IMG/VR virus record: IMGVR_UViG_3300033485_000050
Location: 1 to 35,424 of that record
Length of the DNA stretch: 35,424 bases
Direction: 5' to 3' (one strand)
Origin: a virus
Taxonomy: Duplodnaviria; Caudoviricetes
Shown piece by piece: positions 1-35,424 of the stretch. Position 1 is the first letter of the stretch; every line of letters starts with the position of its first letter. Both the position numbers and the translations under genes were made by a program. The notes beneath the pieces were generated by a model. The model was not told where the DNA came from and did no database searches. It worked only from the letters and a program-made list of their open reading frames with translations.

Positions 1-225
1 TATTGAATTGTTGACTTTTAGTTAAACCATTAGCCTCAGTTCCAAGAATGGACTTGATAGGATCTTTCTCTGGCACAAATGCCGCCGGAACTTTGATGGC
101 TCCAATTTTAAGAACTGTACCCATATCTTTAAGATATTGAGGAATTTCTCCTATCTTAGATTCCATATTTTTAATAGCATCCACTGTAAGATAAGAACCA
201 ATTGCTTGAGATAATTTATTTTTAA
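1..225. repeat. Terminal direct repeat, left copy (circular overlap)
   Basis: 1-225 matches 35200-35424 with one visible mismatch (G98 vs A35297). Confidence 0.97.
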
Positions 226-2317
226 CTAAGAAATTACCTAACTTGCTACCAGATTGATTAGCATAACGTTCTATTAATGCCGTCTCAATAGATTGTGTTA
301 ATGGTTTTGCCGCATCTGCTAAACCAGCACCCGCGATCATACCAATTGGTCCGCCCACTGTTCCAGCCATAGCTCCAGTTACACGATCGGTCGCTAAACC
401 TAGAGCTGCTTTAACATATTGATTTAACTCATATTTTGGAGCATTTAAAGCGGCATCAAAGTTTTGATAATACTTCTCTAATAATTTTCCTTCTGTTGCC
501 CAAGTTTTTATGAGTTTAGCATCTCGTTCTAAAGCCACAATGCTATCAATTTGTTTCACCATTTCTTCTTGAATGGTGCCCCAATATAAGCTTTTGATTT
601 GGTTCTCTAAGGTTCCGCCTTCTTGTGAAACTAAAGATTTCCAATTAATATCTGAACCAAGTTCTTTAACAAACTTATGCATGTTCTCTAAAGTAATATT
701 GCCGGACTTATCAGCTAAATTGAAAATTTTCTCATCTAATTGGGCTGAAATTTTACCTAATTGACCATCAAAATCTAATAAGGACTCAGTCTTTTGTGCC
801 AACTTAGCTAATAGATCATTAGCTTCTTTTGGTGCTAAACCAGTTAATTTAGTAGAAGCTTTATCTAATTGAGGTAGTAAAGGAGCGATCCTTTCACCTT
901 CAGCTAATTGTCTTAAACCATCTACAATCTTTTCTTTAGATTTTCCTTTTAATCCTTTTTCAGCCAAAGATTTGGCAAAAGCATCATCTACTTCATTTAA
1001 TCCTTGACGGATAATACCTTGTTCTCCAGTTACTTTTTCTACCATACCAGTAGATGAAGTAGCCAAATCTTTAGCCAACTCTGCTTTAACAGTTCCTCCA
1101 GTAACTCCAGCTAATTTGCTTTGGAAATAAGGTTCTACTGCGCCGGCGGTTTTCTTCAAACCAGATAAACCAAGCTCTCCAGTTTTAGATAAAAGAGGAC
1201 CGCCAATTCCTAAGATTAATCCAAGACCAGCTCCAATTCCAATAGATTCGGCAGCCGCTTTTGGATTTTCATCAAGAGCTAATTGAGCAATAGCTTGAGG
1301 AGCAGTTATGATCGCACCTTCCGCAGCCGTACCTAATCCTTTAGCTAATAATTGTTTACCAAAAGAAGCGCCTTCCGGAACTAATTTTCCTAAGATACCT
1401 GCTTTAGCAGCTTGGGCTAATTTAACTTCTCCGAAGACACCAGTTGGTATACCTAATTGAGCACCAATACCAGCTACCGTACCCACAGTATGAGCAGTAG
1501 ATTGTTCATTATGTTTTGCTACATCTAAAGCAATATTAGAAGCTTTACCAGCCGCAGTACCAAAATTGTCTGTGATCTTATCATTAATCCATTTTAATCC
1601 TGGTACTGATTCCATGGCGCCAAGAGCACCTACATCAGCCGCAGTTTCTGTATCAGAGGCTAATCTACGATTGGCATCATACAAAGATTGGAAATTAGGA
1701 TCTTGAAATCTAAATCCACTACTTAATAATGGAACTAATTGTTTTCTAGTAGCTAAAACTGGATCGCCATTCAAATCCAATAGTTTATAATTACCATCGT
1801 CATCGGTGACTGCATCCATAGCATGACGTTCATCAATTCTAGACCACCCAGCGGTAGTAAGATCGGTAAAATCTTGATTAACCTTTTTATTATGTTCTAC
1901 AGCCGCTGGAGCGCCCAACTTCCAACCTTCTTGTTGGAAGGTTGCCATATTGGATGGATTCTTTAACCAATCAGAATCTAATTCTTGCTCTTCACCAGTT
2001 GGAGAAATAACTAAGATGCTGCCAGGAGAAACTCCTTGGCGTTCTAAATCTTGCTGAGCCATTGGTTTAGAAGGTAAAGACCATCCTTCAGATTGGAAGG
2101 TGCTCATATTTTCTGGTTTGATTAACCAATCAATATCCAATTCCATAGGCTCGCCGTCAGGAGAAATAACATTAATTACTCCGGGCTTAACACTAGGTGC
2201 GCCTTCAAAGGTTGGACCTGTAGGACCTTCCATTTCAGGAGGAAGAGGAGGACCAAATTCCGCAGAAGGACCTGTCGGTCCGATCGGACCTATATTAGTT
2301 AAATCTGGTGTTGGCAT
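1..2317 (-). CDS. Large internal virion/DNA-ejection protein, 5' part (976 aa when joined across the circular junction)
   Basis: ATG at 2317 overlaps the upstream stop (TAATG). Open frame MPTPDLTNIGPIGPTG... runs off position 1 in frame with ORF 34586..35383. Ala/Gly/Lys-rich helical sequence with hydrophobic Gly-rich segments; last gene of the ejection block. Confidence 0.8.
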   Translation of the reverse strand, partial: MPTPDLTNIGPIGPTGPSAEFGPPLPPEMEGPTGPTFEGAPSVKPGVINVISPDGEPMELDIDWLIKPENMSTFQSEGWSLPSKPMAQQDLERQGVSPGSILVISPTGEEQELDSDWLKNPSNMATFQQEGWKLGAPAAVEHNKKVNQDFTDLTTAGWSRIDERHAMDAVTDDDGNYKLLDLNGDPVLATRKQLVPLLSSGFRFQDPNFQSLYDANRRLASDTETAADVGALGAMESVPGLKWINDKITDNFGTAAGKASNIALDVAKHNEQSTAHTVGTVAGIGAQLGIPTGVFGEVKLAQAAKAGILGKLVPEGASFGKQLLAKGLGTAAEGAIITAPQAIAQLALDENPKAAAESIGIGAGLGLILGIGGPLLSKTGELGLSGLKKTAGAVEPYFQSKLAGVTGGTVKAELAKDLATSSTGMVEKVTGEQGIIRQGLNEVDDAFAKSLAEKGLKGKSKEKIVDGLRQLAEGERIAPLLPQLDKASTKLTGLAPKEANDLLAKLAQKTESLLDFDGQLGKISAQLDEKIFNLADKSGNITLENMHKFVKELGSDINWKSLVSQEGGTLENQIKSLYWGTIQEEMVKQIDSIVALERDAKLIKTWATEGKLLEKYYQNFDAALNAPKYELNQYVKAALGLATDRVTGAMAGTVGGPIGMIAGAGLADAAKPLTQSIETALIERYANQSGSKLGNFLVKNKLSQAIGSYLTVDAIKNMESKIGEIPQYLKDMGTVLKIGAIKVPAAFVPEKDPIKSILGTEANGLTKSQQFN

Positions 2318-4305
2318 TAGCGACCGCCTGTTAGTTTAGCGATTTCGTCTTTCAATCTATCTTCTGATGAACGAGTTGGTCCTGAACTACCACCTTTGGC
2401 GGCAGTTGGTCCGGTTGGAGGTGCGGCTGAAGTTGGTCCTGCCGAAGTTGGTTTGGCAGGAACAGAAGAACTAGAACTTCCGCCTTTTGGTCTAGCAGGT
2501 ACTGCGGATCCTCCTCCAGTAGAAACTGGAACTGCACCACCAGGAGTACCTTGGGCTCCATAAGATTTTCCGCCCAATCCTTCAATATTAGATTTGTTAG
2601 CATCCAAAGCTAATTGTTTAATAGAAGCAATAGCTTTAGCTGGATCTACTGACCAAGGCATATTGTAATTAGATGCTTTTGGAATAATAGACATAGCTCT
2701 ATCAAATTCTTTATCACTCAAAGCATTACCACCACCATTAGCCTTAGCCCAAGCGGCTGCCATCTTAGAACGAATAGCATCTTCTTTGGCAGCATCAGTT
2801 GGATTTAAGATTGTACTAAATCCGCCACCTTGTCTGGTTCTCAACGCTAATAATTCATCTGCTAAACGAGCAAACTCATAAGAACCAGCAGCTCTTTCGC
2901 CATATTCTTTAGCAGCTTCTTTGGATGGAAATCTAAATAGTTTTCCATTAGGATCAGTAACAACTCTTGGATCGGAACTAGATAGTGTACCAGTTCCAGC
3001 GTAAGGATTAGCTACACCTGAAATATCCATATCAGCTTGAGCAGCAACTCTAAAATCATTGACTGAGGCTTTTTGAATAAGAGCTATTTTTTTCTCTGCT
3101 TGATCTTTAGATAAACCTGCTGCCATATAACGAGCAGTCATATCAGCTTTGGCTTTAGCAGCTACGCTCTTATCTTTACTATTAAGAGTATTTTGAGCAC
3201 CAACATAACCTGCCACTAATTGATCTTGCATAGCTTGATAATTTTGTCCAGGAGAAGCAAATTGTGTTCCTTTTAATTGAGGAAACAAATCATCTGTTTG
3301 TTGTAAAGCATTTCTCATAGCTTCGTCGGCTGGAATACCTTGAGCAACCTGGCTGGTCACTAAATCCTTCACCATAGCATTACGCTTATCAGCATCAACT
3401 CTTCTGGCTCCTGCTGCGGCAGCTTGAGCCGCTTTTTGTTGACGGATCATTTCGGCATAGAAAGAACCAGATTTTTCTTGCAATTCAATTTGTTTGGTTT
3501 CCAATGCCATATTCATATCAGCTAGTTTTCTCTTCACTTCAGGATTAGCAGACTTAGCTTGCATAGCCGCCACTTCCATCTGAGTTACTCTTAAACCAGA
3601 CTGCATATAATTAGTATAAAATTGTTGTTTAGCTAATGATTTATTCCACACAGAATCATCTACTTGAAATTGTTGTTGAACACTTCTCCAATAGCTATCT
3701 ATGTCAGATTGTTGAGATTTAATATCATTATCAATAGCGCGAGTAATTAATTCCATAGCTGGATTACCAGTAGCTCCTTTAGTCATACCAGAACCAAAAG
3801 AACCCAATCCGATCGCAATAGCAGAAAGAATATTTAAACCAGTTCCTTGTTTGTTCCAATAACGTTGAGGATCCACGCTCATAGTTCTGCCACGAGCAAT
3901 AGCTTCATCCATTGCTTTGGCGCGGCGATCAGCTTCAGCTTTACCAGCTTCCATCTCGGCTTTTTGTTGAGCCATGACATCTTGAGTAAAAGCCGAGCCT
4001 TTATCATATGCGGCAGCTAAATCATTATTAATTCCAATATCTTCTTGAGCAATATTTTGCTCAGCTTGGGCGCGTCTTGCAAAAACATCCGCCGTCAAAC
4101 CAGGAGTTTGCATTGGATTAATTGGATTAGTACCAAATTGTCCAGGTTGTGGTAATGGAGCAACAGGTGCAGGAGCTGCTTGGACAGGAGGCGCTGGTGG
4201 AGGTACCGGAGCTGCATCTAATGGTGAAGGAGCAAGAGGATCTGGTGTAGATGTTCCTGCATATTTATCACGATCCTGTTGGATCAATTGATTAGGTAAT
4301 GCCAT
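2317..4305 (-). CDS. Internal virion/ejection protein (662 aa)
   Basis: Ala/Gln-rich coiled-coil, hydrophobic segment LNILSAIAIGLGSFGSG, Pro-rich termini, position after the nozzle; RBS AAGGA. Confidence 0.65.
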   Translation of the reverse strand: MALPNQLIQQDRDKYAGTSTPDPLAPSPLDAAPVPPPAPPVQAAPAPVAPLPQPGQFGTNPINPMQTPGLTADVFARRAQAEQNIAQEDIGINNDLAAAYDKGSAFTQDVMAQQKAEMEAGKAEADRRAKAMDEAIARGRTMSVDPQRYWNKQGTGLNILSAIAIGLGSFGSGMTKGATGNPAMELITRAIDNDIKSQQSDIDSYWRSVQQQFQVDDSVWNKSLAKQQFYTNYMQSGLRVTQMEVAAMQAKSANPEVKRKLADMNMALETKQIELQEKSGSFYAEMIRQQKAAQAAAAGARRVDADKRNAMVKDLVTSQVAQGIPADEAMRNALQQTDDLFPQLKGTQFASPGQNYQAMQDQLVAGYVGAQNTLNSKDKSVAAKAKADMTARYMAAGLSKDQAEKKIALIQKASVNDFRVAAQADMDISGVANPYAGTGTLSSSDPRVVTDPNGKLFRFPSKEAAKEYGERAAGSYEFARLADELLALRTRQGGGFSTILNPTDAAKEDAIRSKMAAAWAKANGGGNALSDKEFDRAMSIIPKASNYNMPWSVDPAKAIASIKQLALDANKSNIEGLGGKSYGAQGTPGGAVPVSTGGGSAVPARPKGGSSSSSVPAKPTSAGPTSAAPPTGPTAAKGGSSGPTRSSEDRLKDEIAKLTGGR

Positions 4306-4359: not shown

Positions 4360-5526
4360 TCATTTTATTTTACCTTTTAGTCTAAGATTTTCTTTAATAG
4401 AACTCTTCAATTCTTCTTCCAATTTATTATATTTATGATTTAATAAGGCTAATGAAGCAAGCATGGTACCACCTAATTTGCCATAATCTACAATCTTATA
4501 TCCTTCTTCATTAGTTGAGATGGCGGCTTTACCTAATGGTGTTGACTCTATCTCTTGAGCCATCGGAGAGATTCTTCTACCATCTCCGTACTTAGGATCT
4601 TTATATTCGTAATCATATACGCCAAGAGAATCTAAGAATTCTTGCAATTGATTATCACCAGCTTGGATATTTTGTTTAGAATTAATATCAGAAGCGGCTT
4701 TATTACCCATATAACCAGCATCTCCGCCCGGTTTGTAACCAGGTTGACCTTGAACTCCGCCTTGTCCTCCGGCGGTGACATTTCCTGTATTAGATTGAGC
4801 TTGAACGTATTGTCCTCCAGCTTGTTGTTGAGCTGAGACTTGACCACCAGTAGCGTTATTTTGCGCCCAACCTAATTGTTGACCTTGTTGTGGTTGTTGA
4901 TATTGTTGCGGAGCTTGTCCTTGATATCCTCCGCCATTTTGTTGAAAACCTTGAAAACCGGCTTGAGGTCCTTGACCTTGTTGACCATATGGATTTCTCC
5001 AAGCATTATTAGCTGCCGCTTGACCATTAGTTTTATTCAAAGCATTAAGATAGTTTTGACGAGCTTGAGGATCGCTCATATTAACCGATTGAGTTAATGA
5101 TTTTGGTTGAGGAGCAGGCATCATGTTATAAGTTTGCAACGGAGTTAAATCTGTTTGAGGATTCTGAGACACAGGAATATTGTTCTGTGCCGGTTGCATT
5201 GGACCTTGACCAGCCATGGCTTGATTAATGTTTTGCATAGCTTGGCTACCATTAATCGCTTGACCAAATTGTCCAGGCGATCCTTGATATGCCATAGTTT
5301 GAGGAGGCATGCCTTGCATCATAGCCGGATTAATATTAAAATTAGGAGATGCCATCAATTGCTGAGCAATCATTGGAGATTGCGCAAAAGATTGAGGAAG
5401 ATTAATGTTGGCAGGATAATTGGATTGCAACATTGGTTGTGGCGCAATACCAGCATCTGCATTTACTCTTTGATTAAGATTCATCGGAACATCTGGAATC
5501 CAGCGACCATCGTTTAAGAATGCCAT
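4360..5526 (-). CDS. Gln/Pro-rich virion protein with complete C-terminal Peptidase_S74 (intramolecular chaperone auto-cleavage) domain
   Basis: SDINSKQNI...LDSLGVYDYEYK...MAQEIE...VDYGKL...LNHKYNKLEEELK follows the ICA pattern SDxxxKxNI / YxYK / AQE / VDY + coiled coil. Confidence 0.85.
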   Translation of the reverse strand: MAFLNDGRWIPDVPMNLNQRVNADAGIAPQPMLQSNYPANINLPQSFAQSPMIAQQLMASPNFNINPAMMQGMPPQTMAYQGSPGQFGQAINGSQAMQNINQAMAGQGPMQPAQNNIPVSQNPQTDLTPLQTYNMMPAPQPKSLTQSVNMSDPQARQNYLNALNKTNGQAAANNAWRNPYGQQGQGPQAGFQGFQQNGGGYQGQAPQQYQQPQQGQQLGWAQNNATGGQVSAQQQAGGQYVQAQSNTGNVTAGGQGGVQGQPGYKPGGDAGYMGNKAASDINSKQNIQAGDNQLQEFLDSLGVYDYEYKDPKYGDGRRISPMAQEIESTPLGKAAISTNEEGYKIVDYGKLGGTMLASLALLNHKYNKLEEELKSSIKENLRLKGKIK

Positions 5527-5527
5527 A

Positions 5528-6913
5528 TTATTTCACCAATTTGTTATAAATATTATTTAGAATCTTATTCATTTCTGCTTCGCCGATTCTAATGTTTCTT
5601 TTTGTTCTTATATCAGAAAATGCCATTGGAGGTACTGCATAAGGATTGGTTATCGGAGCTAATTGCATTGGTTGAAAACCACCTGCCTGAAAGCCTCCTG
5701 TCGATCCTAACCCATTCATTGGCATACCTGCGCCCAATTGCATTTGAGCTGGAGGAGGTGCAGCGCCTAAAGTATTATTACTAAAATCTAAAGTACCTCC
5801 ACCAAAAGCATTGTCTGAGATGGAAGGTACATTACCTTGAGGATTAGATGGCATGGAGACGCTTGGAACTGGTCGACTGATCGCTTGTTGCGAGATATTA
5901 CTACCAATTCCTTGAGCTCCTCTAGCTCCTAATTCAATTAATTTAGCTGTAGATGTTCCACCTTGTCCAGAAGCCGCACCTCCAGTGGCGCCTGCGCCCG
6001 CCATAGCGGCTTTACTAGCTCCTAATCCAACACCAGTAGTAGTTGGATAAGTCATGGTTGGTAAAGTGGCAGTTGCCATTGGTAATGCGCCCGTTCCAGC
6101 AGCACCAGCCGCCGGCAATGCTGGAGTAGCCATTGGTAAAGCTCCAGTTCCTGCGGCTCCTGCCATTGGTAGAGATGATCCTGCACCAGAAGCAGAGATG
6201 GTTGGCAAAGTAGAAACAGCGCCAGCACCTGTAGCACCGACCGTTCCACCAGCTCCTCCGGCTGCGCCACCAGCTAATCCAGCACTAGCAGCAGAAGGAA
6301 GTACTCCTCCAGATCCTGCTGCAATAGTTGGAAGAGCAGAAGCAGCCATTGGTAATCCACCCATAGAGGTTGGTAAAGCTGTTCCAGCGGCTAAAGTTGG
6401 TAATGAAGAAGCTACTGTCGCTCCTGAAGCAGCAGTACCAGCAGCAGTTGTGCCAGCCGCCGCACCTGTTGCAGCACCAGCGGCTGCTCCAGAACCAGCT
6501 CCAATAGCAGTTCCTGTTCCTGCGGCAGCAGCACCTTGAGCCACTAAACTTCCAGCAGTAGCTGCACCGGCAGCCGTTCCTGCGGCTGCGCCTCCAGCAG
6601 CAGCTCCGCCCGCGGCAGCACCTGCACCAGCCGCACCAGCGGCTCCAGCACCCGCCGCAGTTGCTCCTACAGCAGTTCCAGCAGCCGCTCCACCTGCCGC
6701 AGCAGCCGTTCCTGCGGCTGCTCCAGCGCCAGCAGCGGTACCTACAGCAGCACCTGCACCAGCAGCAGCAGGAGCAGCGGCAGCACCATAAGTAGCTACA
6801 CCAGCCACAATAGCAGCCAAGACAGCTACTCCTGCGGCAATACCTAATCCAATTTCCTCATCACTAACTTTATTGGAATATTTAAATCCTTTTACACCTT
6901 GTTGTTGTGGCAT
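5528..6913 (-). CDS. Ala/Gly-rich putative ejection protein with N-terminal hydrophobic helix and truncated S74 motif
   Basis: TM-like IGLGIAAGVAVLAAIVAGV, long poly-Ala/Gly tract, LPx repeats, ends SDIRTKRNIRIGEAEMNKILNNIYNKLVK. Confidence 0.7.
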   Translation of the reverse strand: MPQQQGVKGFKYSNKVSDEEIGLGIAAGVAVLAAIVAGVATYGAAAAPAAAGAGAAVGTAAGAGAAAGTAAAAGGAAAGTAVGATAAGAGAAGAAGAGAAAGGAAAGGAAAGTAAGAATAGSLVAQGAAAAGTGTAIGAGSGAAAGAATGAAAGTTAAGTAASGATVASSLPTLAAGTALPTSMGGLPMAASALPTIAAGSGGVLPSAASAGLAGGAAGGAGGTVGATGAGAVSTLPTISASGAGSSLPMAGAAGTGALPMATPALPAAGAAGTGALPMATATLPTMTYPTTTGVGLGASKAAMAGAGATGGAASGQGGTSTAKLIELGARGAQGIGSNISQQAISRPVPSVSMPSNPQGNVPSISDNAFGGGTLDFSNNTLGAAPPPAQMQLGAGMPMNGLGSTGGFQAGGFQPMQLAPITNPYAVPPMAFSDIRTKRNIRIGEAEMNKILNNIYNKLVK

Positions 6914-6923
6914 TTCTTTCTCC

Positions 6924-8006
6924 TTATATGATCATTAACATTTTTAGAAACTGAGGAGAATTATACACATTATCTAATACTTTACTTAATTGTTTCTCAC
7001 CAGATGTAATATTCTTTTTAGAATTAATATCAGAAGCAGCCGCAGCTACGCCACCAGCTACACCAGCAGCACCACCAGCAATAGATCCGGCAATAGAAGC
7101 ATCAATATTTGCCTGATTAATACTTAATCCTTGCTTAATACCGGCAGCGGTCAACCAGTTAGATGATTCCTGAGCTTGTTGAGCCATGGAAGCTTGGAAC
7201 TGAGCCAAGTTCATTTGTTGTAACATGCTCATATAGTTATTGTATTGTTGAGCATTTAAAGCATTCTGAGCTTGTTGAGCTCCTAAGTTTCCTTGGTTAG
7301 CTTCTTGATACAATCCAGCTTGGTACTGTTGTTGTTGTTGATTCATTTGTGCTTGCAATGCATTTTGTTGGTTGATCGCACCCATAGAAGCTAATTGAGC
7401 TTGTTGAGTTAATTGAGCTTGATTGCCAGCAAATGATTGTGCCTGTTGATTCATACCACCAAGCAATTGTCCTTGAGCTTGCATAGCAGCCATTTCTTCT
7501 TGAGTTCTACCAGCTACAGCTTGTTGAGCGGCTTGTTGCATGGATTGAGCACCCATTTGTTGAGCTTGATAAGCAGCTAAAGCAGGATTGGAAGCTCCTC
7601 TTTGCGCTCCAAGCATTGCCATTTGGTTTTGTAAATTTTGTTGTTGAGCTTGTTGAGCTTGGACTTGAGCCATAGAAGGACCTTGACCAGCAGCCATGGC
7701 GCCCAATTGATTGGCTAATTGCCATTGAGCATTCCAGCTTTGGTTATATTGTCCTTGATCCATTTTGGCGCCACCATAGGTAGCAGTATTACCAAGCTGT
7801 GCGGCTTGACCAGCATTGACATAGCCCATTTGAGGAGCTGCGCCTGTGGTAGTACCAAGCATGTTATTCATGCCGCCTTGCCAATTGCCTGCTTGATTGC
7901 CAACAGGATTCTTATAAGCATTTGGATCAACTTTTGGATAATTCATCAAATCATCGCCTGGCGAATCATCGACGTTGACACTTTTAACTTGTTGTGTATC
8001 GACCAT
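6924..8006 (-). CDS. Gln/Ala/Asn-rich pilot/ejection protein with truncated S74 motif
   Basis: Q/A/N-rich helical repeats, then a Gly/Ala hydrophobic stretch, then SDINSKKNITSGEKQLSKVLDNVY; first gene after the nozzle. Confidence 0.7.
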   Translation of the reverse strand: MVDTQQVKSVNVDDSPGDDLMNYPKVDPNAYKNPVGNQAGNWQGGMNNMLGTTTGAAPQMGYVNAGQAAQLGNTATYGGAKMDQGQYNQSWNAQWQLANQLGAMAAGQGPSMAQVQAQQAQQQNLQNQMAMLGAQRGASNPALAAYQAQQMGAQSMQQAAQQAVAGRTQEEMAAMQAQGQLLGGMNQQAQSFAGNQAQLTQQAQLASMGAINQQNALQAQMNQQQQQYQAGLYQEANQGNLGAQQAQNALNAQQYNNYMSMLQQMNLAQFQASMAQQAQESSNWLTAAGIKQGLSINQANIDASIAGSIAGGAAGVAGGVAAAASDINSKKNITSGEKQLSKVLDNVYNSPQFLKMLMII

Positions 8007-8044: not shown

Positions 8045-11000
8045 TTAAACGCTCTTTTTATTCGTGACAGGTAGACGCATGCCATCATTGAATAAGCCAA
8101 CTTCCATTAAGATATTGTTTAATGTATAACCTTCATTATATGGAAGCTCTTGAGCATCTTTAATTCTGATCCTAATAGAGGAACATTTTTGTCTAGAGCA
8201 ATTAACTTGTACAATATATGGAGACCAAGTTCCGCCCCAAGGAGAAGGTTGACCCCAGTTTACTCCAGAGCCCCAGACGTTAATTCCTGCCAAAGAAGTT
8301 GGTTGGAATGAAGCTGTTCTAGTAAAAGCTGGATCGAAGTCATAAGAGACAGAAACATCTAATTCATGAGCGCCACGGTATTGTCCTAAGATAAAAAATC
8401 TAAAGATCGCTTGGTATCCTAAGTTATTAGCTAAAGAGATCCATGGCGTGGTCATTTCCATTGAATATGGTACTGCTTGTTCGGCAACATAACCATCATA
8501 GAAAATAGATTGATTTTGTTGATAAACTGATCCATTAGACTTGGCGAAAGTAAATTCACCATTAAATACCACAGCATCAACTGCGTTATGATTGGTCCAG
8601 GTTGCCCATTGATTAATAAAATAATCAAAAACCATAGCAGGACCATCATAAGTAGTAAAAATAACAGAGTTACTATTAGGATCTAAATTAGATGATGATA
8701 CTTGAAAAGTTTTAGCTTCTGTATCTACTCCAGCGCCAATATACACAGGTTCTCCTAAAGTTCTTGGAAGCATCCAGATTCCTTTGTTTGGAGATTGAAA
8801 CATAATACCAGAAGTAGTTAATAAAATAGAAGCTTGGTTAGCGCAACCAACAGATTGAGAAATTAATTGAGGATCTGGAAAAGGTTGACCTCCTCCTTGA
8901 TCATTAGTTCCTTCGCCATTCATAATAAAGATAGCATTGCGCTTGAAGATAATTAAATTACCATCCATTAATCCTAAACCAGTGATCGGTCCACCTAACT
9001 GGTTGACCGAGATAGTATTAAAAGAAGTAAATTCTATTGGAATAGTGGATGAGTTAGAATTATCTACTTTGTTTTTAGAATACCATAGCAAATTAGGATC
9101 TTCTAGTCCTCCAATTATCACTCTGTTGTTGTACAAGGAGATCATAGAGCAAGATGGTGGCGCAGAATTTGGTAAAAAGCCTCCAGTGGTATAAATTGGT
9201 GCATTGTTAGTGATCTCGACATCGGATAAGGCGTCTGTGAACAAAATATAATTAGTATTTGGATTGTTTTTTAATGGCACCAAATTAGATGTTACTTCTT
9301 GGAAGACCTGAGCATTAACTTGTGTTCTATACACTTTGATAATAACATTATCTTTAGATGTAAGTCTTAAAGAAGGTATAGCAAATTGTACTGCTGCATT
9401 AACTGGAGTAGTTACTTGTAAAGCTGGAGATGGTGTGCTGTATTGTGTCTGACCAAATTTATCATTCCAAGCATAAACAAATTGATATTGATATTGTCCG
9501 GCGGATAAAGCACCTTGACCAGGAAGAACTTCATATAAGAGATCTTCCGGATAAACGTTAAAGTTTTGTTCTACTACTTGAACACCATCATAAGATTGTA
9601 ACAATCCTCCTACATAAAGTAAATTATTAGAGAAAGTAACAGAGTTAAACTTATTAGGATTAGTATAATCAATAATAGTTGAGTTAACACCTGTTAAAGA
9701 GAAAGTAATTAAGTCTTCAGAGACTATTTTATTTTGAGTTAAGTTTGCCCACAAAAAAATACCAGGAGCGATCGTAGCTGTTTCTGATAACATATGGTTA
9801 GTTCTTAATCCTCCTCCAGATCCTGGAGAAACTTTAGAAACAATAGTAAATGGAACGTTAGTTAACAAAGCAGTAAAGTAAGTGTTCTGTAATGGAATGA
9901 TTGGTCCACCAGGAAAATATTGAGTTCCTTGAGATTGATAAGCTAAATTAACATAAATATCTTTACCTTGTTTATATGGTTTAGCCGCCAAACCAACAGA
10001 TAGTAATTGTCCAATAAAATTAGCATTGCCTAATATATCTACTACTTGAGATCGAACTGCCTCATTGGAAGAAATAGCATTATAAACTTCATAAATAATC
10101 TGTAGCGATCCTGCATTAATAGATTCTATTCCTGTCACAATTGGGCTGACTACTGTATCCACCAAAGATGGTGCTTGGATTTGAGCCCAAGTAATAGCAT
10201 CATAAGTAGAAGTATAAACCGCCGCTCCGGTAGACCAAGAAATCCAATTTTGTCCAAATGAATCGGGCACAATACTGACAGATAAGAAATTAGAATTGAC
10301 AATAGCACCAGAAGCTACGGTAGTGGTATTATTGATATTACCATCTGGATCTAAATCAAAAGCAATTACCTGACCTGTTTGATCAATGTAAGTGATATAA
10401 ATTAAATCATTATCTGGTGTACTAGCTAAATTGTTAATACAGACGTCATAAGGAAAACCTTGGTAACCATCTGCGATCAATGGTACTTGAGGAGTAATAA
10501 CGCCTGGGTTATTTGTATTAATAGTTTGATAACATAGAACATTATTAAACGTATAAAACAAATAGATTAATTCGTTAGCCGAGATAAGTTTTGGTTTACT
10601 TGTGCCGCCTGGAATAGCTTGATCGAAAAGAATATAAGAGTTAGTTACATAATCTAGTACAGAGTATCTTAACGGTCCTCTTGAATCTTCATAGGCAAAG
10701 ACTTTTACTTCGTTTAGGAAAGCGCAGTCTGGATTTAATTGTTGGGCGGAAGTAATATCTACAATTTTGTTATTGGTATTGATTAAAGAAATAGCCGGAC
10801 CACGATTAGACCAAGCACCAATAGAATCAATATAAGTATAAACGTTAACGTTATCGAAAAGACAAATTTCACTGTTAAAAGAATCAATGGCTACGGCAGA
10901 AGTAATAGCACCATTGGTCATGATGTTTTTACCTAAAATATCATAACCTGGTCTTTTGTTTAAAGCTCCAACTTTATCAAACTTAGCATTTTGTAATGAA

Positions 11001-11089
11001 GTAAGATTAGGTAGTTGAACTTGTAATGCATCGGTCTTACTTGCAAGACCGCCTTGGAATGAAATTGGTACGGTTTGGGCGTTTAACAT
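8045..11089 (-). CDS. Tail nozzle/hub (T7 gp12 / P22 gp10-like beta-propeller)
   Basis: ~1014 aa, beta-rich; N-terminal FQGGL...LQNAKF, NNRVIIGG...LLWYSK; follows adaptor and fibre genes. Start moved to ATG 11089 with GGAG RBS. Confidence 0.75.
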   Translation of the reverse strand: MLNAQTVPISFQGGLASKTDALQVQLPNLTSLQNAKFDKVGALNKRPGYDILGKNIMTNGAITSAVAIDSFNSEICLFDNVNVYTYIDSIGAWSNRGPAISLINTNNKIVDITSAQQLNPDCAFLNEVKVFAYEDSRGPLRYSVLDYVTNSYILFDQAIPGGTSKPKLISANELIYLFYTFNNVLCYQTINTNNPGVITPQVPLIADGYQGFPYDVCINNLASTPDNDLIYITYIDQTGQVIAFDLDPDGNINNTTTVASGAIVNSNFLSVSIVPDSFGQNWISWSTGAAVYTSTYDAITWAQIQAPSLVDTVVSPIVTGIESINAGSLQIIYEVYNAISSNEAVRSQVVDILGNANFIGQLLSVGLAAKPYKQGKDIYVNLAYQSQGTQYFPGGPIIPLQNTYFTALLTNVPFTIVSKVSPGSGGGLRTNHMLSETATIAPGIFLWANLTQNKIVSEDLITFSLTGVNSTIIDYTNPNKFNSVTFSNNLLYVGGLLQSYDGVQVVEQNFNVYPEDLLYEVLPGQGALSAGQYQYQFVYAWNDKFGQTQYSTPSPALQVTTPVNAAVQFAIPSLRLTSKDNVIIKVYRTQVNAQVFQEVTSNLVPLKNNPNTNYILFTDALSDVEITNNAPIYTTGGFLPNSAPPSCSMISLYNNRVIIGGLEDPNLLWYSKNKVDNSNSSTIPIEFTSFNTISVNQLGGPITGLGLMDGNLIIFKRNAIFIMNGEGTNDQGGGQPFPDPQLISQSVGCANQASILLTTSGIMFQSPNKGIWMLPRTLGEPVYIGAGVDTEAKTFQVSSSNLDPNSNSVIFTTYDGPAMVFDYFINQWATWTNHNAVDAVVFNGEFTFAKSNGSVYQQNQSIFYDGYVAEQAVPYSMEMTTPWISLANNLGYQAIFRFFILGQYRGAHELDVSVSYDFDPAFTRTASFQPTSLAGINVWGSGVNWGQPSPWGGTWSPYIVQVNCSRQKCSSIRIRIKDAQELPYNEGYTLNNILMEVGLFNDGMRLPVTNKKSV

Positions 11090-11190
11090 AATTTCTCCAT
11101 ACAAACTCTTTTACCATCAATTAATTTACAAGTTTGACCAATATAAACTTTATCGTTTACAGTATTTTTAATAATGTATATTGTATTCAT
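11083..11190 (-). pseudogene. Internally deleted GIY-YIG homing endonuclease remnant (35-aa mini-ORF)
   Basis: MNTIYIIKNTVNDKVYIGQTCKLIDGKRVCMEKLC; IY..YIG motif nearly identical to NTINDKVYVGQT of 14124..14660; RBS AAGGA; stop overlaps the nozzle start. Confidence 0.8.
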
Positions 11191-13402: not shown

Positions 13403-14127
13403 TAGTACATTCCTAAATTGTTGCCCCAATAGAAATATTGATTTTGGTAGCGAGTATCTGCTACGAATTTAACTCCGCCGGCATCTCTGTTCTTAGCTGC
13501 CGCCATAATTCTTTGTTGGAGAGCAGCTTTCTCTGCCATAAATCCAGATGGATCTATGTTTTGTTTGTTGAAGATTTTGATACAAGCGTCTACAATCGCA
13601 TATTCTGACCATCCTTGCATGTTCATGTAAACTGGAAGAATATCAGTTGTTAAAGTTAGATATTGGAATTTTGGTGTGTACCAGACTTGATAGGTGCCGG
13701 CGCAGTTAGTATTAGGAATGATTTGAATTCCTTGATCCATTAAATTATAAGAAATATTTAATCTGCCCCAAGGTAGAGAAATAACCGACATTGGATTTTG
13801 TTGATTACGTTCTAAGAAATTATATCTTGGAACCGAATACCATAGTGCTGGTTGGGCGGGCGATTGCGATGGTTGATATTGAAAATCCACTCCTCTTAGT
13901 TTTAAAAGAGTAGGAGGAATTGGAAGAATATTAGAGCTAGTATTAGTTGGAATGATGGATTGATAATTAAGCATATGATAATCATCATATTCTGTGGCAA
14001 GAATATCATCTAATTCGCCCAAAGATTGATTAAGATAAAGCATCAACTCATTATCAGTCACAAATTGATTCGCTTCCATATTACTACGTTGCCTAGTATA
14101 TGTTATCATTTGCTGCATACTAGTCAT
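13402..14127 (-). CDS. Head-tail adaptor (tail tubular protein A-like)
   Basis: N-terminal MITYTRQRSNME...TDNELMLYLNQSLGEL helix pair; 241 aa; lies between capsid and nozzle genes. Confidence 0.7.
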   Translation of the reverse strand: MTSMQQMITYTRQRSNMEANQFVTDNELMLYLNQSLGELDDILATEYDDYHMLNYQSIIPTNTSSNILPIPPTLLKLRGVDFQYQPSQSPAQPALWYSVPRYNFLERNQQNPMSVISLPWGRLNISYNLMDQGIQIIPNTNCAGTYQVWYTPKFQYLTLTTDILPVYMNMQGWSEYAIVDACIKIFNKQNIDPSGFMAEKAALQQRIMAAAKNRDAGGVKFVADTRYQNQYFYWGNNLGMY

Positions 14128-14660
14128 TTCTTTTGTCCTTTACAGATACGAGAAATAGTTTTACTGCTACAAGGATAATCTTTAGCAATTTGTTCGTAGG
14201 ATCTTTTATCAGATCTTATTTCTTGTATTTGAGATTCTGTTAAATGTATTGTTTTTGTACTATTTTTTGAAATCTTTATCCTAGTTTCAAAAGAGGTAGC
14301 TTTTCCTTTATTCCAAGCAGATTTACCAATTTTTGCCAAAGACATTTTTAATTTAGTTTCTTCCGAAAATTTACCTCTAGATCCGCCCTCTTTAATATTG
14401 TATCCTGTATTAATGCTATCATAAGTATTAATCCAAAATTTTTCTAAAGCGTCGGCAATTTTTTGATTATCACAGGTAACTAATAATTCTATAGTAAAAT
14501 TATCTCTTCCATATTTATTAATTGCATTTTTTATCTTACTTTTATATGGATGTTTATTACAATGTGCGTAAAATCTTTCCTTCAACGATTGCCATGTTTG
14601 ACCCACATAAACTTTATCATTTATAGTATTAGTTATGAGATAAATACTGCAAACAGTCAT
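14124..14660 (-). CDS. GIY-YIG homing endonuclease with NUMOD3-like repeats and C-terminal HTH
   Basis: IYLITN..KVYVGQT, conserved R, E (ALEKFWI), GYN; SEETKLKMS and SFETRIKIS repeats; YEQIAKDYPCSSKTISRI. Confidence 0.92.
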   Translation of the reverse strand: MTVCSIYLITNTINDKVYVGQTWQSLKERFYAHCNKHPYKSKIKNAINKYGRDNFTIELLVTCDNQKIADALEKFWINTYDSINTGYNIKEGGSRGKFSEETKLKMSLAKIGKSAWNKGKATSFETRIKISKNSTKTIHLTESQIQEIRSDKRSYEQIAKDYPCSSKTISRICKGQKK

Positions 14661-20301: not shown

Positions 20302-21732
20302 TTATTCCTCATTATAGTTAACTTCCATTGAAGTATTTTGTTTATTTAAACTCTTCCAGTGTTGTTCTAATAATCTTCTTCTTAATTCTTCTTCATTATT
20401 AGGATTAATCACTGGTTTTACTTCATACCAATAATGTCTACTGTGTGTAAAGCCATACAATAAAGCATCTGTTAAATGATTTTCTTTGGTAGCATTTTCT
20501 TTATGTTTACCAAGTAGTAAAGCTCTTTCATTCCAAATTAAAGTTTCTAATTCTTCAATTAATGGCTGATTAGTAGGTTGTAAAATTTGTATTTTGCCAG
20601 TTTGAAAATCAGAATTCATTAAATGAATATGAGCTTCTTTGCCGCGCTTATCGGCAGCCAATAAAGGCAAACCGTGAATGATTCTAATTTCTTCTACTAA
20701 TTGTAAGTTAGCCGCATCTACTACTATATTTCTAAAATTATATTTAGACATGTAAGCTTTGATTTGCTCAGCTACCGCAGTAACAGTTAGTTGAGATTGT
20801 TTGAAAGATTCTAATACATACATTTTACTATCAAATGATCTATTATAAACAGAAACTACAAAAGCAGTTGCGTCATTCCAACCAAAATCGATAGATAAAA
20901 GGTAAATGACATCTCCAATAAATACTTGAGTAGGTATACTATTGATATAATTAAGCTCTTTGGTAGATTTATATACTCTGGCACTTTCTTCAATTACCCA
21001 TTCGCCCAACCATTCTTGTCTAAAAGATGAAGTATTGACAATCAAAGGATCTGCGGCTAAACGTTCATCTAATTGTTTTTGAACTCCTTCTCTAACAAAT
21101 GGATTGTTCTTCCAGCTCCACTGAAAATCTTTCCAAGTTCCATTTTGATTTTTTGGATCATTGATTTGCCACCAATAATGAAGACCCATTTGATTTCCTG
21201 GCGTACCAATCATACATAGTGTTCCATCAAGATCTGCTAAAGTAGGAAGGATAACTGACTCTACTAATTCTCTTAAATCTTGTGTAAATGATTGGCATTC
21301 ATCTACCACGGCGATTCTATATTTTTGCCCTCTAAGTTTATTCTTTTCTTTAAAAGTGGCGTCGGCGCCAGTTAGCTGAATAACAGAGCCATTAGAGAAC
21401 TTAATTTGTAATCCAACTAATTGTGCTGGCACATTATATTTAAGAATAACGTTTTCGAAAATATCCATCCACATGGTTTGTTTAGCGGTTTCTTTAGTTA
21501 ATCCTACATAAACATATTTAGAACGAGGATTAGAGAGAGCTTCGTTAACCATGTATAGACCAACGGTGGTTGATTTACCAGAACGTCTAGTCAAACAAAG
21601 TTTCTTTCTTTTGGACGGATCTTTAATGAAAGCTAATTGTTCCGCAAAACATTCCGATAAAACATTAATTGGAGGAGCTGCGCGTTTGGTTAGCTCTTTC
21701 TTCATTAATTTAGCCGCCAAAACTTGATTCAT
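20302..21732 (-). CDS. terL: Terminase large subunit
   Basis: Walker A RRSGKST, Walker B AVVDECQ, coupling motif IGTP, RNase H-like nuclease SIDFGWND...NHLTDALLY. Confidence 0.96.
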   Translation of the reverse strand: MNQVLAAKLMKKELTKRAAPPINVLSECFAEQLAFIKDPSKRKKLCLTRRSGKSTTVGLYMVNEALSNPRSKYVYVGLTKETAKQTMWMDIFENVILKYNVPAQLVGLQIKFSNGSVIQLTGADATFKEKNKLRGQKYRIAVVDECQSFTQDLRELVESVILPTLADLDGTLCMIGTPGNQMGLHYWWQINDPKNQNGTWKDFQWSWKNNPFVREGVQKQLDERLAADPLIVNTSSFRQEWLGEWVIEESARVYKSTKELNYINSIPTQVFIGDVIYLLSIDFGWNDATAFVVSVYNRSFDSKMYVLESFKQSQLTVTAVAEQIKAYMSKYNFRNIVVDAANLQLVEEIRIIHGLPLLAADKRGKEAHIHLMNSDFQTGKIQILQPTNQPLIEELETLIWNERALLLGKHKENATKENHLTDALLYGFTHSRHYWYEVKPVINPNNEEELRRRLLEQHWKSLNKQNTSMEVNYNEE

Positions 21733-22193
21733 ATTGATCCTCTCAAATCATCAATAACGCTTGGATCATATAAAATACCATAACGTTTTTTCAATTCAGG
21801 CAACAAAACAAATGGAGAGGTAATAACTAATATTGGATCGCCATTTTGAACATAATCTGTTAATAATCCTTTAGCTATTCCTAATCTTCTATATAATGGT
21901 TTGGTGTGCGCCCAATGAACATATAAAGTCTTCATTTTAAAATTAGGCTGCATAACTAGGTAACCAGCAATATTATCCGCATCATTATCCAAATGCGCTA
22001 CTTTTACTATGGATTTAGAAAGTATATTATTGATTAAGGCTTTTTGTCTAGGAAAAAAAATGGAGTTAGAAATAAAATTATCATACTTAATCTTGTGCGC
22101 TTCATTAGACCATGAGGCAAGAATAAATGCATAATCTTCTGGTTTACCATCTCTAATAGTAAATGGTTGGTCTGCTGGAATTCCGTAATTCAT
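21729..22193 (-). CDS. GNAT-family acetyltransferase
   Basis: IRDGKPEDY N-terminus; motif A YVHWAHTKPLYRRLGIAKGLL. Confidence 0.8.
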   Translation of the reverse strand: MNYGIPADQPFTIRDGKPEDYAFILASWSNEAHKIKYDNFISNSIFFPRQKALINNILSKSIVKVAHLDNDADNIAGYLVMQPNFKMKTLYVHWAHTKPLYRRLGIAKGLLTDYVQNGDPILVITSPFVLLPELKKRYGILYDPSVIDDLRGSI

Positions 22194-26464: not shown

Positions 26465-26890
26465 ATGACTTGGAATTTATTTAAAAGTGATAGTACTTTA
26501 TTAAAAGAACATATTAGAGACTCTATGATTGAAATTCAATATGTATTAGCGTACTGCGACGATATGCCATTTTCATTTATGAATGATGAATATTGTGAGC
26601 AAGCAAAAACAGTAGTTGATAAATTTGTTCAAGACACATCTCATATTTTAAACTTAGATGAGCGTTGCGATAAGATTAATGATTTAGTAAGAGAATACAG
26701 CCAATCTGTTTATCTTCAAAAACGTGAAGAGCGAATTGAAAATGATGAATTGCAAATTGCCGCTATGCACAGAATTCTTACCAAATTATCATATGATGCT
26801 AAGTTTGCTTATTTAAGCAAACGTGAAAATACGACGGAACAAAATTGGATTGAATTAGAAAAAGAATTACTTAAATTATCAATAAAATGA
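26465..26890 (+). CDS. Hypothetical protein
   Basis: 141 aa, RBS AGGAG, ATGA overlap with next gene. Confidence 0.7.
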   Translation: MTWNLFKSDSTLLKEHIRDSMIEIQYVLAYCDDMPFSFMNDEYCEQAKTVVDKFVQDTSHILNLDERCDKINDLVREYSQSVYLQKREERIENDELQIAAMHRILTKLSYDAKFAYLSKRENTTEQNWIELEKELLKLSIK

Positions 26891-27438
26891 ATTCATCACA
26901 AATTATAGATTATACCGGACAGAAATTCAATAGCTTAACAGCTATTAAGTTTGTGGGCTATAAAGAAACTGGTAAATTAAAAGCTAAAAGAAGAGTTTGG
27001 TTATTCCAATGTGATTGTGGTAATCAAAAAGAAATCTCTGTTGAGAATGTTTTTCGTTCTTCTTCTCCAACCAAATCTTGCGGTTGCTTGAAAGCTTCCA
27101 TTCAGAAATATAGCGGACTCCAGGCGCTCCAATATGCCGTTTATACAGAAGGTAAGTATAACGAGGCAGACATTACCTTGGAACAATTTATAAAGTTAAG
27201 CCAAGAGGATTGTCATTACTGTGGTAGTCCAGTCTCAGTCAGCGGTAAGACCAGACAAGGCAAGAGGTTTAAAGAGCCATTTACTTATCATGGATTGGAT
27301 CGCAAAGATAATAGTAAAGGACACACTTCAGAGAATTGTGTGCCGGCGTGCTTCGACTGCAACATGAGAAAAAGAGAATGGAATTACCAAGAGTTTTTGG
27401 ATTGGATTAAAACTGTGTATGAGAGGAGAATAAAATGA
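26887..27438 (+). CDS. HNH homing endonuclease
   Basis: GQKFNSLTAI..WLFQCDCGN..TKSCGC N-domain; CHYCG...GLDRKDNSKGHTSENCVPACFDCN. Confidence 0.9.
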   Translation: MNSSQIIDYTGQKFNSLTAIKFVGYKETGKLKAKRRVWLFQCDCGNQKEISVENVFRSSSPTKSCGCLKASIQKYSGLQALQYAVYTEGKYNEADITLEQFIKLSQEDCHYCGSPVSVSGKTRQGKRFKEPFTYHGLDRKDNSKGHTSENCVPACFDCNMRKREWNYQEFLDWIKTVYERRIK

Positions 27439-34585: not shown

Positions 34586-35424
34586 TTATAGTTTGGTTAT
34601 TCTTTGTGCCGCAGTGTAAGGAGAAATCTTATCTGCTTTTAATGGTTTACTATTACCTTGTGATTTAGGTGGTGGTTGGTTAGTTGATTGAGTCTTACCA
34701 TAAGTAGCTTGTAACGCAGATCCATTTCTTAATCCAGGATCTAATGGAGCACCCATAATAATAGAAGCTGTTAATCTTTGTTGATAAGGCAAATTAACCT
34801 TACCAGAATAAGCCTCTTTAACAATCTCTTCTCTCATTTTTTGTAAGATCGCCGGATTTAATTCCGCCACCAAAGCTACCTGCTTAGAAGTAACACGACC
34901 ATGCTTTAAACCATCCATTAAAGCATATGGATTCATGGCTACTTTTAACAAACCATCAATCTCTGCCATTTGACTTGGTGTTGGTTCAAATTTCTTTTCT
35001 TTACCAGTAAAAGCTTCTGGTTGTTTATTATTGTACATGTTAACAATTTGATTTAAGGTTTGAATCTTTTGTTGATAATCTGTGTACAATTGTCCTGCCA
35101 ATTGAGGATGATCTTTGAAGATTGGCGCAATGTATAATTCGAAGTTCTTTTGCATCATCTCAGAAGAACTTGATAATGCTGCCAATCTATCAGATAATCT
35201 ATTGAATTGTTGACTTTTAGTTAAACCATTAGCCTCAGTTCCAAGAATGGACTTGATAGGATCTTTCTCTGGCACAAATGCCGCCGGAACTTTGATAGCT
35301 CCAATTTTAAGAACTGTACCCATATCTTTAAGATATTGAGGAATTTCTCCTATCTTAGATTCCATATTTTTAATAGCATCCACTGTAAGATAAGAACCAA
35401 TTGCTTGAGATAATTTATTTTTAA
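34586..35424 (-). CDS. Large internal virion/ejection protein, 3' part (continuation of the gene starting at 2317)
   Basis: 35383 corresponds to position 184; 2317-184=2133 nt=711 codons, in frame; 711+265=976 aa. Confidence 0.8.
   Translation of the reverse strand, partial: KNKLSQAIGSYLTVDAIKNMESKIGEIPQYLKDMGTVLKIGAIKVPAAFVPEKDPIKSILGTEANGLTKSQQFNRLSDRLAALSSSSEMMQKNFELYIAPIFKDHPQLAGQLYTDYQQKIQTLNQIVNMYNNKQPEAFTGKEKKFEPTPSQMAEIDGLLKVAMNPYALMDGLKHGRVTSKQVALVAELNPAILQKMREEIVKEAYSGKVNLPYQQRLTASIIMGAPLDPGLRNGSALQATYGKTQSTNQPPPKSQGNSKPLKADKISPYTAAQRITKL
35200..35424. repeat. Terminal direct repeat, right copy
   Basis: Matches 1-225. Confidence 0.97.

Follow-up and report, generated by a model that had tools for sequence, protein, structure and literature searches.

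How can three probable virion proteins share the end of a self-cleaving domain if only one of them carries the domain itself? The question is raised by three adjacent genes, here called genes 1 to 3, in the IMG/VR virus record IMGVR_UViG_3300033485_000050 (Caudoviricetes), whose 35,424 nucleotides were analysed as a whole and are referred to as the window. The protein of gene 3 ends in a full Peptidase_S74 (ICA) domain, and those of genes 1 and 2 end in short tails, the stubs, that resemble only the beginning of this domain. Our work suggests that the stubs are conserved S74 cut-site peptides, and we hold the chances to be slightly better than even that they dock into the single domain of gene 3 and are cut there, which would trim all three proteins. 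The features on which this proposal is built are the following (aa, amino acids):

6924..8006, minus strand: gene 1 (P0003), 360 aa, Gln/Ala-rich and predicted to be helical, at the first ejection-protein position, with a Gly/Ala hydrophobic segment and a stub at its end
7035..7097, minus strand: Gly/Ala hydrophobic segment of gene 1, aa 304-324, mean hydropathy 1.4, the mature C-terminus if the protein is cut
6924..7034, minus strand: stub 1, Ser325-Asp-x-x-x-Lys330 and an amphipathic helix, 36 aa, with neither YxY pocket nor coiled coil
5528..6913, minus strand: gene 2 (P0002), 461 aa, Ala/Gly-rich, with a hydrophobic N-terminal segment (aa 21-39, hydropathy 2.5) and a stub at the C-terminus
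5528..5617, minus strand: stub 2, Ser433-Asp-x-x-x-Lys438 and a helix, 29 aa
4360..5526, minus strand: gene 3 (P0001), 388 aa, Gln/Gly/Pro-rich, bearing the full S74 domain
4999..5079, minus strand: internal helix and Asn-Asn-x-aromatic segment of gene 3, aa about 150-176
4360..4692, minus strand: full Peptidase_S74/ICA domain with Ser279, Lys284, Tyr306-x-Tyr308, SPMAQE, VDY and a long C-terminal helix

One S74 core and two stubs

The initial annotation had described an S-D-x-x-x-K module in three neighbouring proteins, with the full domain in the third only. Both statements hold: the three modules lie on the minus strand, their Ser codons, all TCT, are found at 7034-7032, 5617-5615 and 4692-4690, and counted from this Ser the tails comprise 36 aa in gene 1, 29 aa in gene 2 and 110 aa in gene 3. 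In a Pfam search with all three proteins, PF13884 (Peptidase_S74) is matched by gene 3 alone (29 bits, cut-off 22, E 1.3e-6) and not by the stubs of genes 1 and 2. Likewise, a core profile detects exactly one S74 core in the whole genome, on gene 3, and no match in the two stubs, from both of which YxY is absent. A profile made from homologous stubs matches all three modules of the window (E 4e-9, 6e-6 and 2e-7), the stub profiles having been trained on tails selected by their motif. The motif S-D-x-x-x-K-x-x-[IV] is expected by chance 2.4e-5 times per site, i.e. 2.6e-3 times per 110-aa C-terminus, and three adjacent motifs are therefore not a product of chance. Among the 35 open reading frames (ORFs) of at least 100 aa, it occurs in genes 1-3 and at one internal site of a 772-aa ORF that does not match the helix profile. 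In pairwise BLASTP (E<0.1) the three proteins align to each other over the module only; at this level, the earlier view that they are otherwise unrelated is correct. By profile comparison the gene 1 family matches that of gene 3; this was set aside because alignment A2 includes gene-1-type proteins. The truncated tails are not assembly errors, since relatives stop at the same places; moreover, the stop of gene 2 is covered by contig X2 (5486-5700), obtained in the same study from another sample, the single difference being elsewhere.

In an alignment of 92 proteins, S279, D280, K284 and Y308 of the gene 3 domain are invariant and Y306 is present in at least 90%. The domain model has a long helix at residues 75-110. 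By sequence, the domain matches 3GUD weakly (E 0.009). A fold search with the monomer model (predicted local distance difference test, pLDDT, 63) yielded nothing significant, with the MYRF ICA at E about 3, and the Atlas model of the domain matches S74 clusters (template modelling score 0.78), both sides being predicted structures. The model of gene 1 (mean pLDDT 61, stub helix about 90) consists of long helices and an unstructured stretch before the Ser and has no beta-helix, so that a triple beta-helix passenger upstream of the Ser was not found there; genes 2 and 3 are of low complexity before the Ser. A fold search with the gene 1 model among viral models found nothing significant. The predicted complex of two full domains (aa 272-385) and stub 1 (aa 318-360) scored 0.27 (mark 0.32) and carries no weight either way.

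Conservation of the stubs in split and fused relatives

Are the stubs maintained, or are they relics? Applying a fixed rule, 48 of 69 gene 1 homologues end in a stub of 23-39 aa and three in a full domain, which leaves 18 that have neither of the two. A score for the helix alone, which is blind to S, D and K and was trained leave-one-out on motif-selected tails, found 51 matches in 70 proteins, and all 51 have S, D and K. In the 150 best full-domain proteins, 41 of the 44 blind matches outside the full domain have S and K (shuffled proteins give 3). The Ser of the stubs is encoded by TCT, TCA, TCC and AGC and is thus kept across the TCN and AGY codon groups. The pooled ratio of nonsynonymous to synonymous differences (pN/pS) is 0.51 for the gene 1 stubs, 0.54 for the gene 2 stubs, 0.24 and 0.38 for the polyprotein modules described below and 0.37 for the full domain's own module, values that cover 23 codons with synonymous sites near saturation.

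These data bear on the idea that the stubs are functionless leftovers of polyprotein splitting or gene duplication, refreshed by gene conversion. This idea could explain why gene 1 has no stub in three relatives, why stub 1 of the window is identical to the full module at 50 of 69 nucleotides with a low pS (0.36), and why stubs resemble the module of their own genome. We nevertheless regard it as improbable: proteins with as little as about 30% identity still have S, D, K and the helix pattern, Ser codons have changed, pN is below pS, and no half-decayed tail is present among the 69 homologues, in which the tail is either intact or absent. The decay of tails in relatives, which the initial annotation had named as evidence against a function, is thus not what is seen; the relatives retain S, D and K, and their stubs occur only beside a core. 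In addition, eight of 17 tail-less gene 1 homologues end within -2 to +4 residues of the Ser position, i.e. at the predicted cut. Of the remaining nine, one ends at +9, two look like fragments and one is probably frameshifted; four have low-complexity tails of another kind, and the last has an alternative module that is considered below.

The association with a core was analysed in relatives chosen by the nozzle gene, a marker independent of S74: these are the best 80 of 270, and the query alignment came from S74-bearing loci. Seventeen of the 80 loci had less than 3.4 kb downstream and were dropped (two of them, L042 and L051, show a stub but end before a core could appear), which left 63. 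Stubs are present in 14 of the 24 loci with a core and in none of the 39 without (13 of 22 and 0 of 35 once near-copies are removed). In L072, L078 and L080, the first gene after the nozzle region has, ahead of the full domain, an extra bare S-D-x-x-x-K with hardly any helix or none; as these loci were scored as stub-less, stubs are probably undercounted. On a quick tree the window falls into a 14-row clade (SH-aLRT 98) in which every row has a stub and a full domain. It is conceivable that stubs need no core and cut themselves, either unaided or on a different surface of the virion, e.g. the portal or scaffold, as both catalytic residues lie within the stub, and the 66-72-aa S74 domains without long coil of cultured phages indicate that the fold can shrink. 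The complete absence of stubs from the 39 core-less loci argues against such autonomy, as does the lack of the pocket tyrosines that MYRF needs, and we give it little chance, hardly more than the leftover idea.

The number of stubs per locus varies from one to three. The order stub, stub, full domain is found in the window and in L043, L045-L048 and L050; in L044, L025 and L026 the first gene has no stub, the second has one and the third bears the full domain; L082 has one stub and the full domain; and L049 has three stubs and the full domain in four tandem genes (L049:10192-13381). This variation is relevant for another possibility, namely that the three C-termini form one fixed heterotrimer of one full domain and two stubs that cuts once. 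In its favour, stub-stub-full is the commonest multi-module layout in long polyproteins, three modules match a trimer, and the abutting genes 2 and 3 suggest that their translation is coupled. However, loci with one or three stubs exist (L082, L044, L049), and the coiled coil and three pockets of the trimer core cannot come from stubs, according to the part of PMC8326128 available to us, so that this is the least probable of the explanations considered here. The earlier proposal of a shared maturation or sorting tag completed by the one full domain thus survives in part: the conserved stubs, the fused relatives and the tail-less ends at the cut support it, but a fixed heterotrimer of one full domain and two stubs is unlikely.

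The fused relatives are informative about the predicted cut. In L005-L008 and L032/L037, one protein of 1030-1350 aa has two internal stubs followed by a terminal full domain, the same order as that of the genes in the window. By a rule that makes a few errors, such as P0121, 48 of the 150 best full-domain proteins bear extra stubs (one before the domain in 28, two before it in 18, one after it in 2), and these 150 proteins have 258 S-D-x-x-x-K motifs as compared to 9.8 in shuffles. The internal segment of gene 3 at 4999..5079 is homologous to the start of the third polyprotein piece, except for the S-D-x-x-x-K that precedes it there. In proteins of more than 800 aa this dyad precedes 18 of 18 matches to the segment (two of the 18 being cross-hits to the first module), whereas it is missing in 50 of 51 matches in shorter, stand-alone gene 3 proteins, the window included. 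The dyad is kept when the pieces are fused and lost when they are split; it is therefore retained at positions where a cut would do the work of a gene boundary. The cores of P0054 and L091 lack a cut-site peptide of their own, and a stub lies farther upstream, a layout that fits a pocket served by a distant peptide. In P0062 and P0213 a stub is located just 25 residues before the full domain of the same chain.

From a self-cutting chaperone to a proposed shared cutting site

How might a stub be cut? Of the papers cited here, we rely on the parts available to us. In the MYRF ICA trimer, the cut-site peptide ("cable") of one subunit passes through the pocket ("donut") of its neighbour; the cut requires both S587 and K592, and the normal cut is blocked in the Y615/Y617 double mutant; trimerisation depends on a C-terminal three-helix coiled coil, with three pockets, and cleavage appears to be independent of the upstream beta-helix (PMC8326128). 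T5 pb1 has the same Ser-Lys dyad, and its Ser-to-Ala structure is uncut (PMC4690869). Since replacement of the Ser by Ala leaves T5 pb1 and MYRF uncut but still able to fold and crystallise (PMC4690869, PMC8326128), the invariant Ser of the stubs would point to chemistry rather than to folding. The phage fibre chaperones (K1F endoNF, the GA-1 neck appendage, PDB 3GUD, and T5 pb1) are the comparison system for gene 3, which resembles them in its Ser-Asp-x-x-x-Lys cut site, helix, YxY, AQE, VDY and C-terminal coil. In contrast to the fibres, the passengers in the window are of low complexity and predicted to be helical rather than triple beta-helices, and two further proteins have the cut-site peptide alone; in T5-like phages with two fibres, each fibre bears its own full domain (PMC4728585). 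The MYRF ICA (PDB 7DC3) is similar to what we propose in being a release device with the peptide in a neighbour's pocket, but it is homotrimeric and makes a single round of cuts, in its own three chains, and separate stub-bearing clients are not described in the available part of PMC8326128.

Stubs without YxY or coil cannot build a pocket of their own by the known route, and yet they keep the catalytic pair; the simplest reading is that they use the pockets of gene 3. Our proposal starts from three tightly packed genes with one core and two stubs, a layout that is conserved whether split or fused, and from the established properties of ICA domains, i.e. a site completed between chains and, in MYRF, no need for a beta-helix passenger. 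The gene 3 domain would trimerise and cut itself off, and its pockets would then be reused by exchange of the cable, each stub supplying its own Ser-Lys pair in a substrate-borne catalysis. In the split form, docking might also bring the three low-complexity proteins together so that they are loaded into the head jointly, and it might shield the hydrophobic end of gene 1 until maturation; these are the weaker steps. Split genes need no cut for separation, and the retention of their stubs suggests that docking itself matters, e.g. for co-loading, which is the weakest link in this chain. It is possible, though we put the chances somewhat below even, that an ICA domain which otherwise acts once as a chaperone and removes itself has here become a reusable maturase with a portable dock-and-cut tag: its pockets would take up tags of 25-35 residues with their own Ser-Lys pair, ejection proteins so tagged would be gathered for head loading and cut free, a prohead protease would be replaced, and gene boundaries and cut sites would become interchangeable.

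The strongest competitor is the idea that the stubs are docking or sorting tags that are never cut, and that bind the full domain or a capsid part for loading, with S, D and K kept for binding. An alternative C-terminal module is relevant here. This module of about 65 aa (GG-x-V-P-G...N-D-x-V-P-A-x-L-S-P-G-E plus a helix) often ends the gene-1-type protein at the place of S74, for instance at L055:11532-11735, L098:11398-11601, in 24 other nozzle-selected loci and in P0071. Only 1 of 26 loci with it has an S74 core, as compared to 23 of the 37 without it; on the quick tree it is clustered, with three changes. It matches tape-measure PHROGs weakly. A tape-measure hook of JBD30 has been described (PMC11445458); homology of the module to this hook could not be confirmed. 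In P0054 and at L091:6327-8393 the module stands directly before the S74 helix and core, in place of the core's own S-D-x-x-x-K. The uncut-tag explanation can call on this module, which also ends in an amphipathic helix at the same place and would imply a shared anchoring or sorting role, and on the persistence of the helix without dyad inside gene 3. Against it speak the retention of the dyad exactly where a cut replaces a gene boundary and its loss elsewhere, the tail-less homologues that end at the Ser position, and the fact that the Ser is unnecessary for folding in known ICA mutants. We therefore consider uncut tags unlikely, even if less so than any of the three rivals treated above.

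Several observations weigh against docking and cutting at the gene 3 domain. Known ICA trimers are very stable (PMC8326128), and the exchange of cables on such a trimer, on which the proposal depends, is without precedent in the papers found. The helix that persists without S and K inside gene 3 must have a role apart from cutting, so that not every helix marks a cut site, and the alternative module at the same place could mean that what both have in common is an anchoring or sorting function and not a cut. The association of stub and core needs only about three to four changes on the quick tree and does not represent 14 independent cases. The gene 1 stub is absent from the close relatives L044, L025 and L026 and is dispensable there. 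Stubs resemble the full module of their own genome above chance (permutation p 0.001, 11 loci), which is also explained by gene conversion or shared ancestry. The short length behind the pN/pS values and the motif-based training of the stub profiles have to be counted here as well, and so does the identity of the ejection proteins, which is judged from position, composition and distant families: none of the 49 aligned gene 1 sequences matches a PHROG.

The initial annotation had also called the arrangement undescribed, and here a distinction is required. The layout with a shared domain looks undescribed, but S74 on proteins at the ejection position is already annotated in GenBank for cultured phages: gp17 of the Pseudoalteromonas phage vB_PspP-H6/1 is annotated as "putative ejection protein; pfam13884" and EVC05_012 of the Rhizobium phage RHph_N2 as "peptidase_S74 domain-containing structural protein". 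According to these annotations, from which the comparison is drawn, the cultured podoviruses and the window both have S74 at the C-terminus of the low-complexity protein that comes first behind the tail gene, with two larger genes next in order; unlike the window, each of the four phages checked has a single shortened domain (66-72 aa) and neighbours without terminal stubs. L128-L131 and L012-L014 are proteins at the ejection position with a single S74, in a shortened 66-74-aa form without first helix and without long coil. In the open-licence literature we found no description of stubs or of a shared S74 domain and no paper describing S74 on ejection proteins. The available parts of the ejection-protein review PMC8954989 and of the Xacm4-11 preprint (10.64898/2026.02.16.706137) do not mention S74, and those of PMC6972908, PMC3742443, PMC12632334 and PMC4728585 contain no trans cleavage of separate clients.

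The three genes among virion genes, and what a shared site would mean

The window represents a circular genome of podovirus type, about 35.2 kb long and from an uncultured phage, with a terminal repeat of 225 bp (1-225 and 35200-35424, one mismatch); the ORFs 2..2317 and 34586..35383 are two parts of one gene across the circular junction. In a family library search, a P22-like portal, terminase and major head gene were found upstream of genes 1-3. The genes that flank the three are:

8045..11104, minus strand: 1019-aa gene directly upstream of gene 1, tail-nozzle-like as judged from position and size
2317..4305, minus strand: 662-aa gene downstream of gene 3, without a stub

The 662-aa gene is followed by the larger ORF that spans the circular junction, and by position these two are likely the larger ejection proteins. 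Thus, genes 1-3 are placed after the portal, capsid and tail genes and before two large genes, and the order is the same in relatives. The gaps between the genes differ across 12 loci (+1, -1, +2, -4 and others), and a programmed frameshift or read-through that would join genes 1-3 was rejected for this reason. Many relatives have a small gene between nozzle and gene 1 (e.g. L004:4843-5241), which is annotated as acyltransferase in cultured phages; the window has none at this place, and a weak GNAT match adjoins the terminase at 21729..22193. A homing-type GIY-YIG/NUMOD3 endonuclease lies amid the virion gene block (14124..14660, minus strand), and an HNH endonuclease at 26887..27438 (plus strand). 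The polyprotein form is present in a metagenome-assembled genome (MAG) of the Polyangiaceae (L037); the split form in an archaeal MAG (L036) is suspected to be a mis-binned contig. Six of 401 sampled genomes of the phylum of G001 have a match, and three of these look like fibre-type S74.

Position, composition and distant annotation make it likely that genes 1-3 encode proteins injected with the DNA. For L033 a match to PHROG 4287, "DNA ejection protein", covers the S74 part; L012-L014, which are more distant, match this family too. Beyond S74, no family library names genes 1-3, and NCBIfam has no family for the three proteins. When the alignments of the nozzle, of gene 1 and of the alternative module were searched against PDB sequences, none gave a match, and homologue searches for the gene 2 family returned one and four proteins. 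A close cultured phage was not found: the S74 domain gives weak fibre matches only, and L033 gives none. A known parallel is P22, where gp7 as the first ejection protein undergoes trimming ahead of assembly and assists the loading of gp20 and gp16 (PMC4992974). The gene position of gp7/gp20/gp16 is similar to that in the window, but gp7 is trimmed at the N-terminus by a host protease, unlike the C-terminal site proposed here, and sequence homology between these and the window proteins was not detected.

Taken together, the comparison of sequences indicates that the arrangement is real and conserved and a variant of the ICA system, and that a dock-and-cut mechanism is likely. The selection, loading and maturation of ejection proteins in short-tailed phages are poorly understood (PMC8954989). 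With a tag that is small and conserved and a single small domain, the question can be put to a direct test in an expression host. If the core cuts the tags in trans, this would be a trans-acting, substrate-assisted use of an ICA domain such as was not found in the literature searched; it would provide a minimal cleavable tag of roughly 30 residues with a dedicated 110-residue cutter, and it would have a bearing on how other chains could engage the human MYRF domain.

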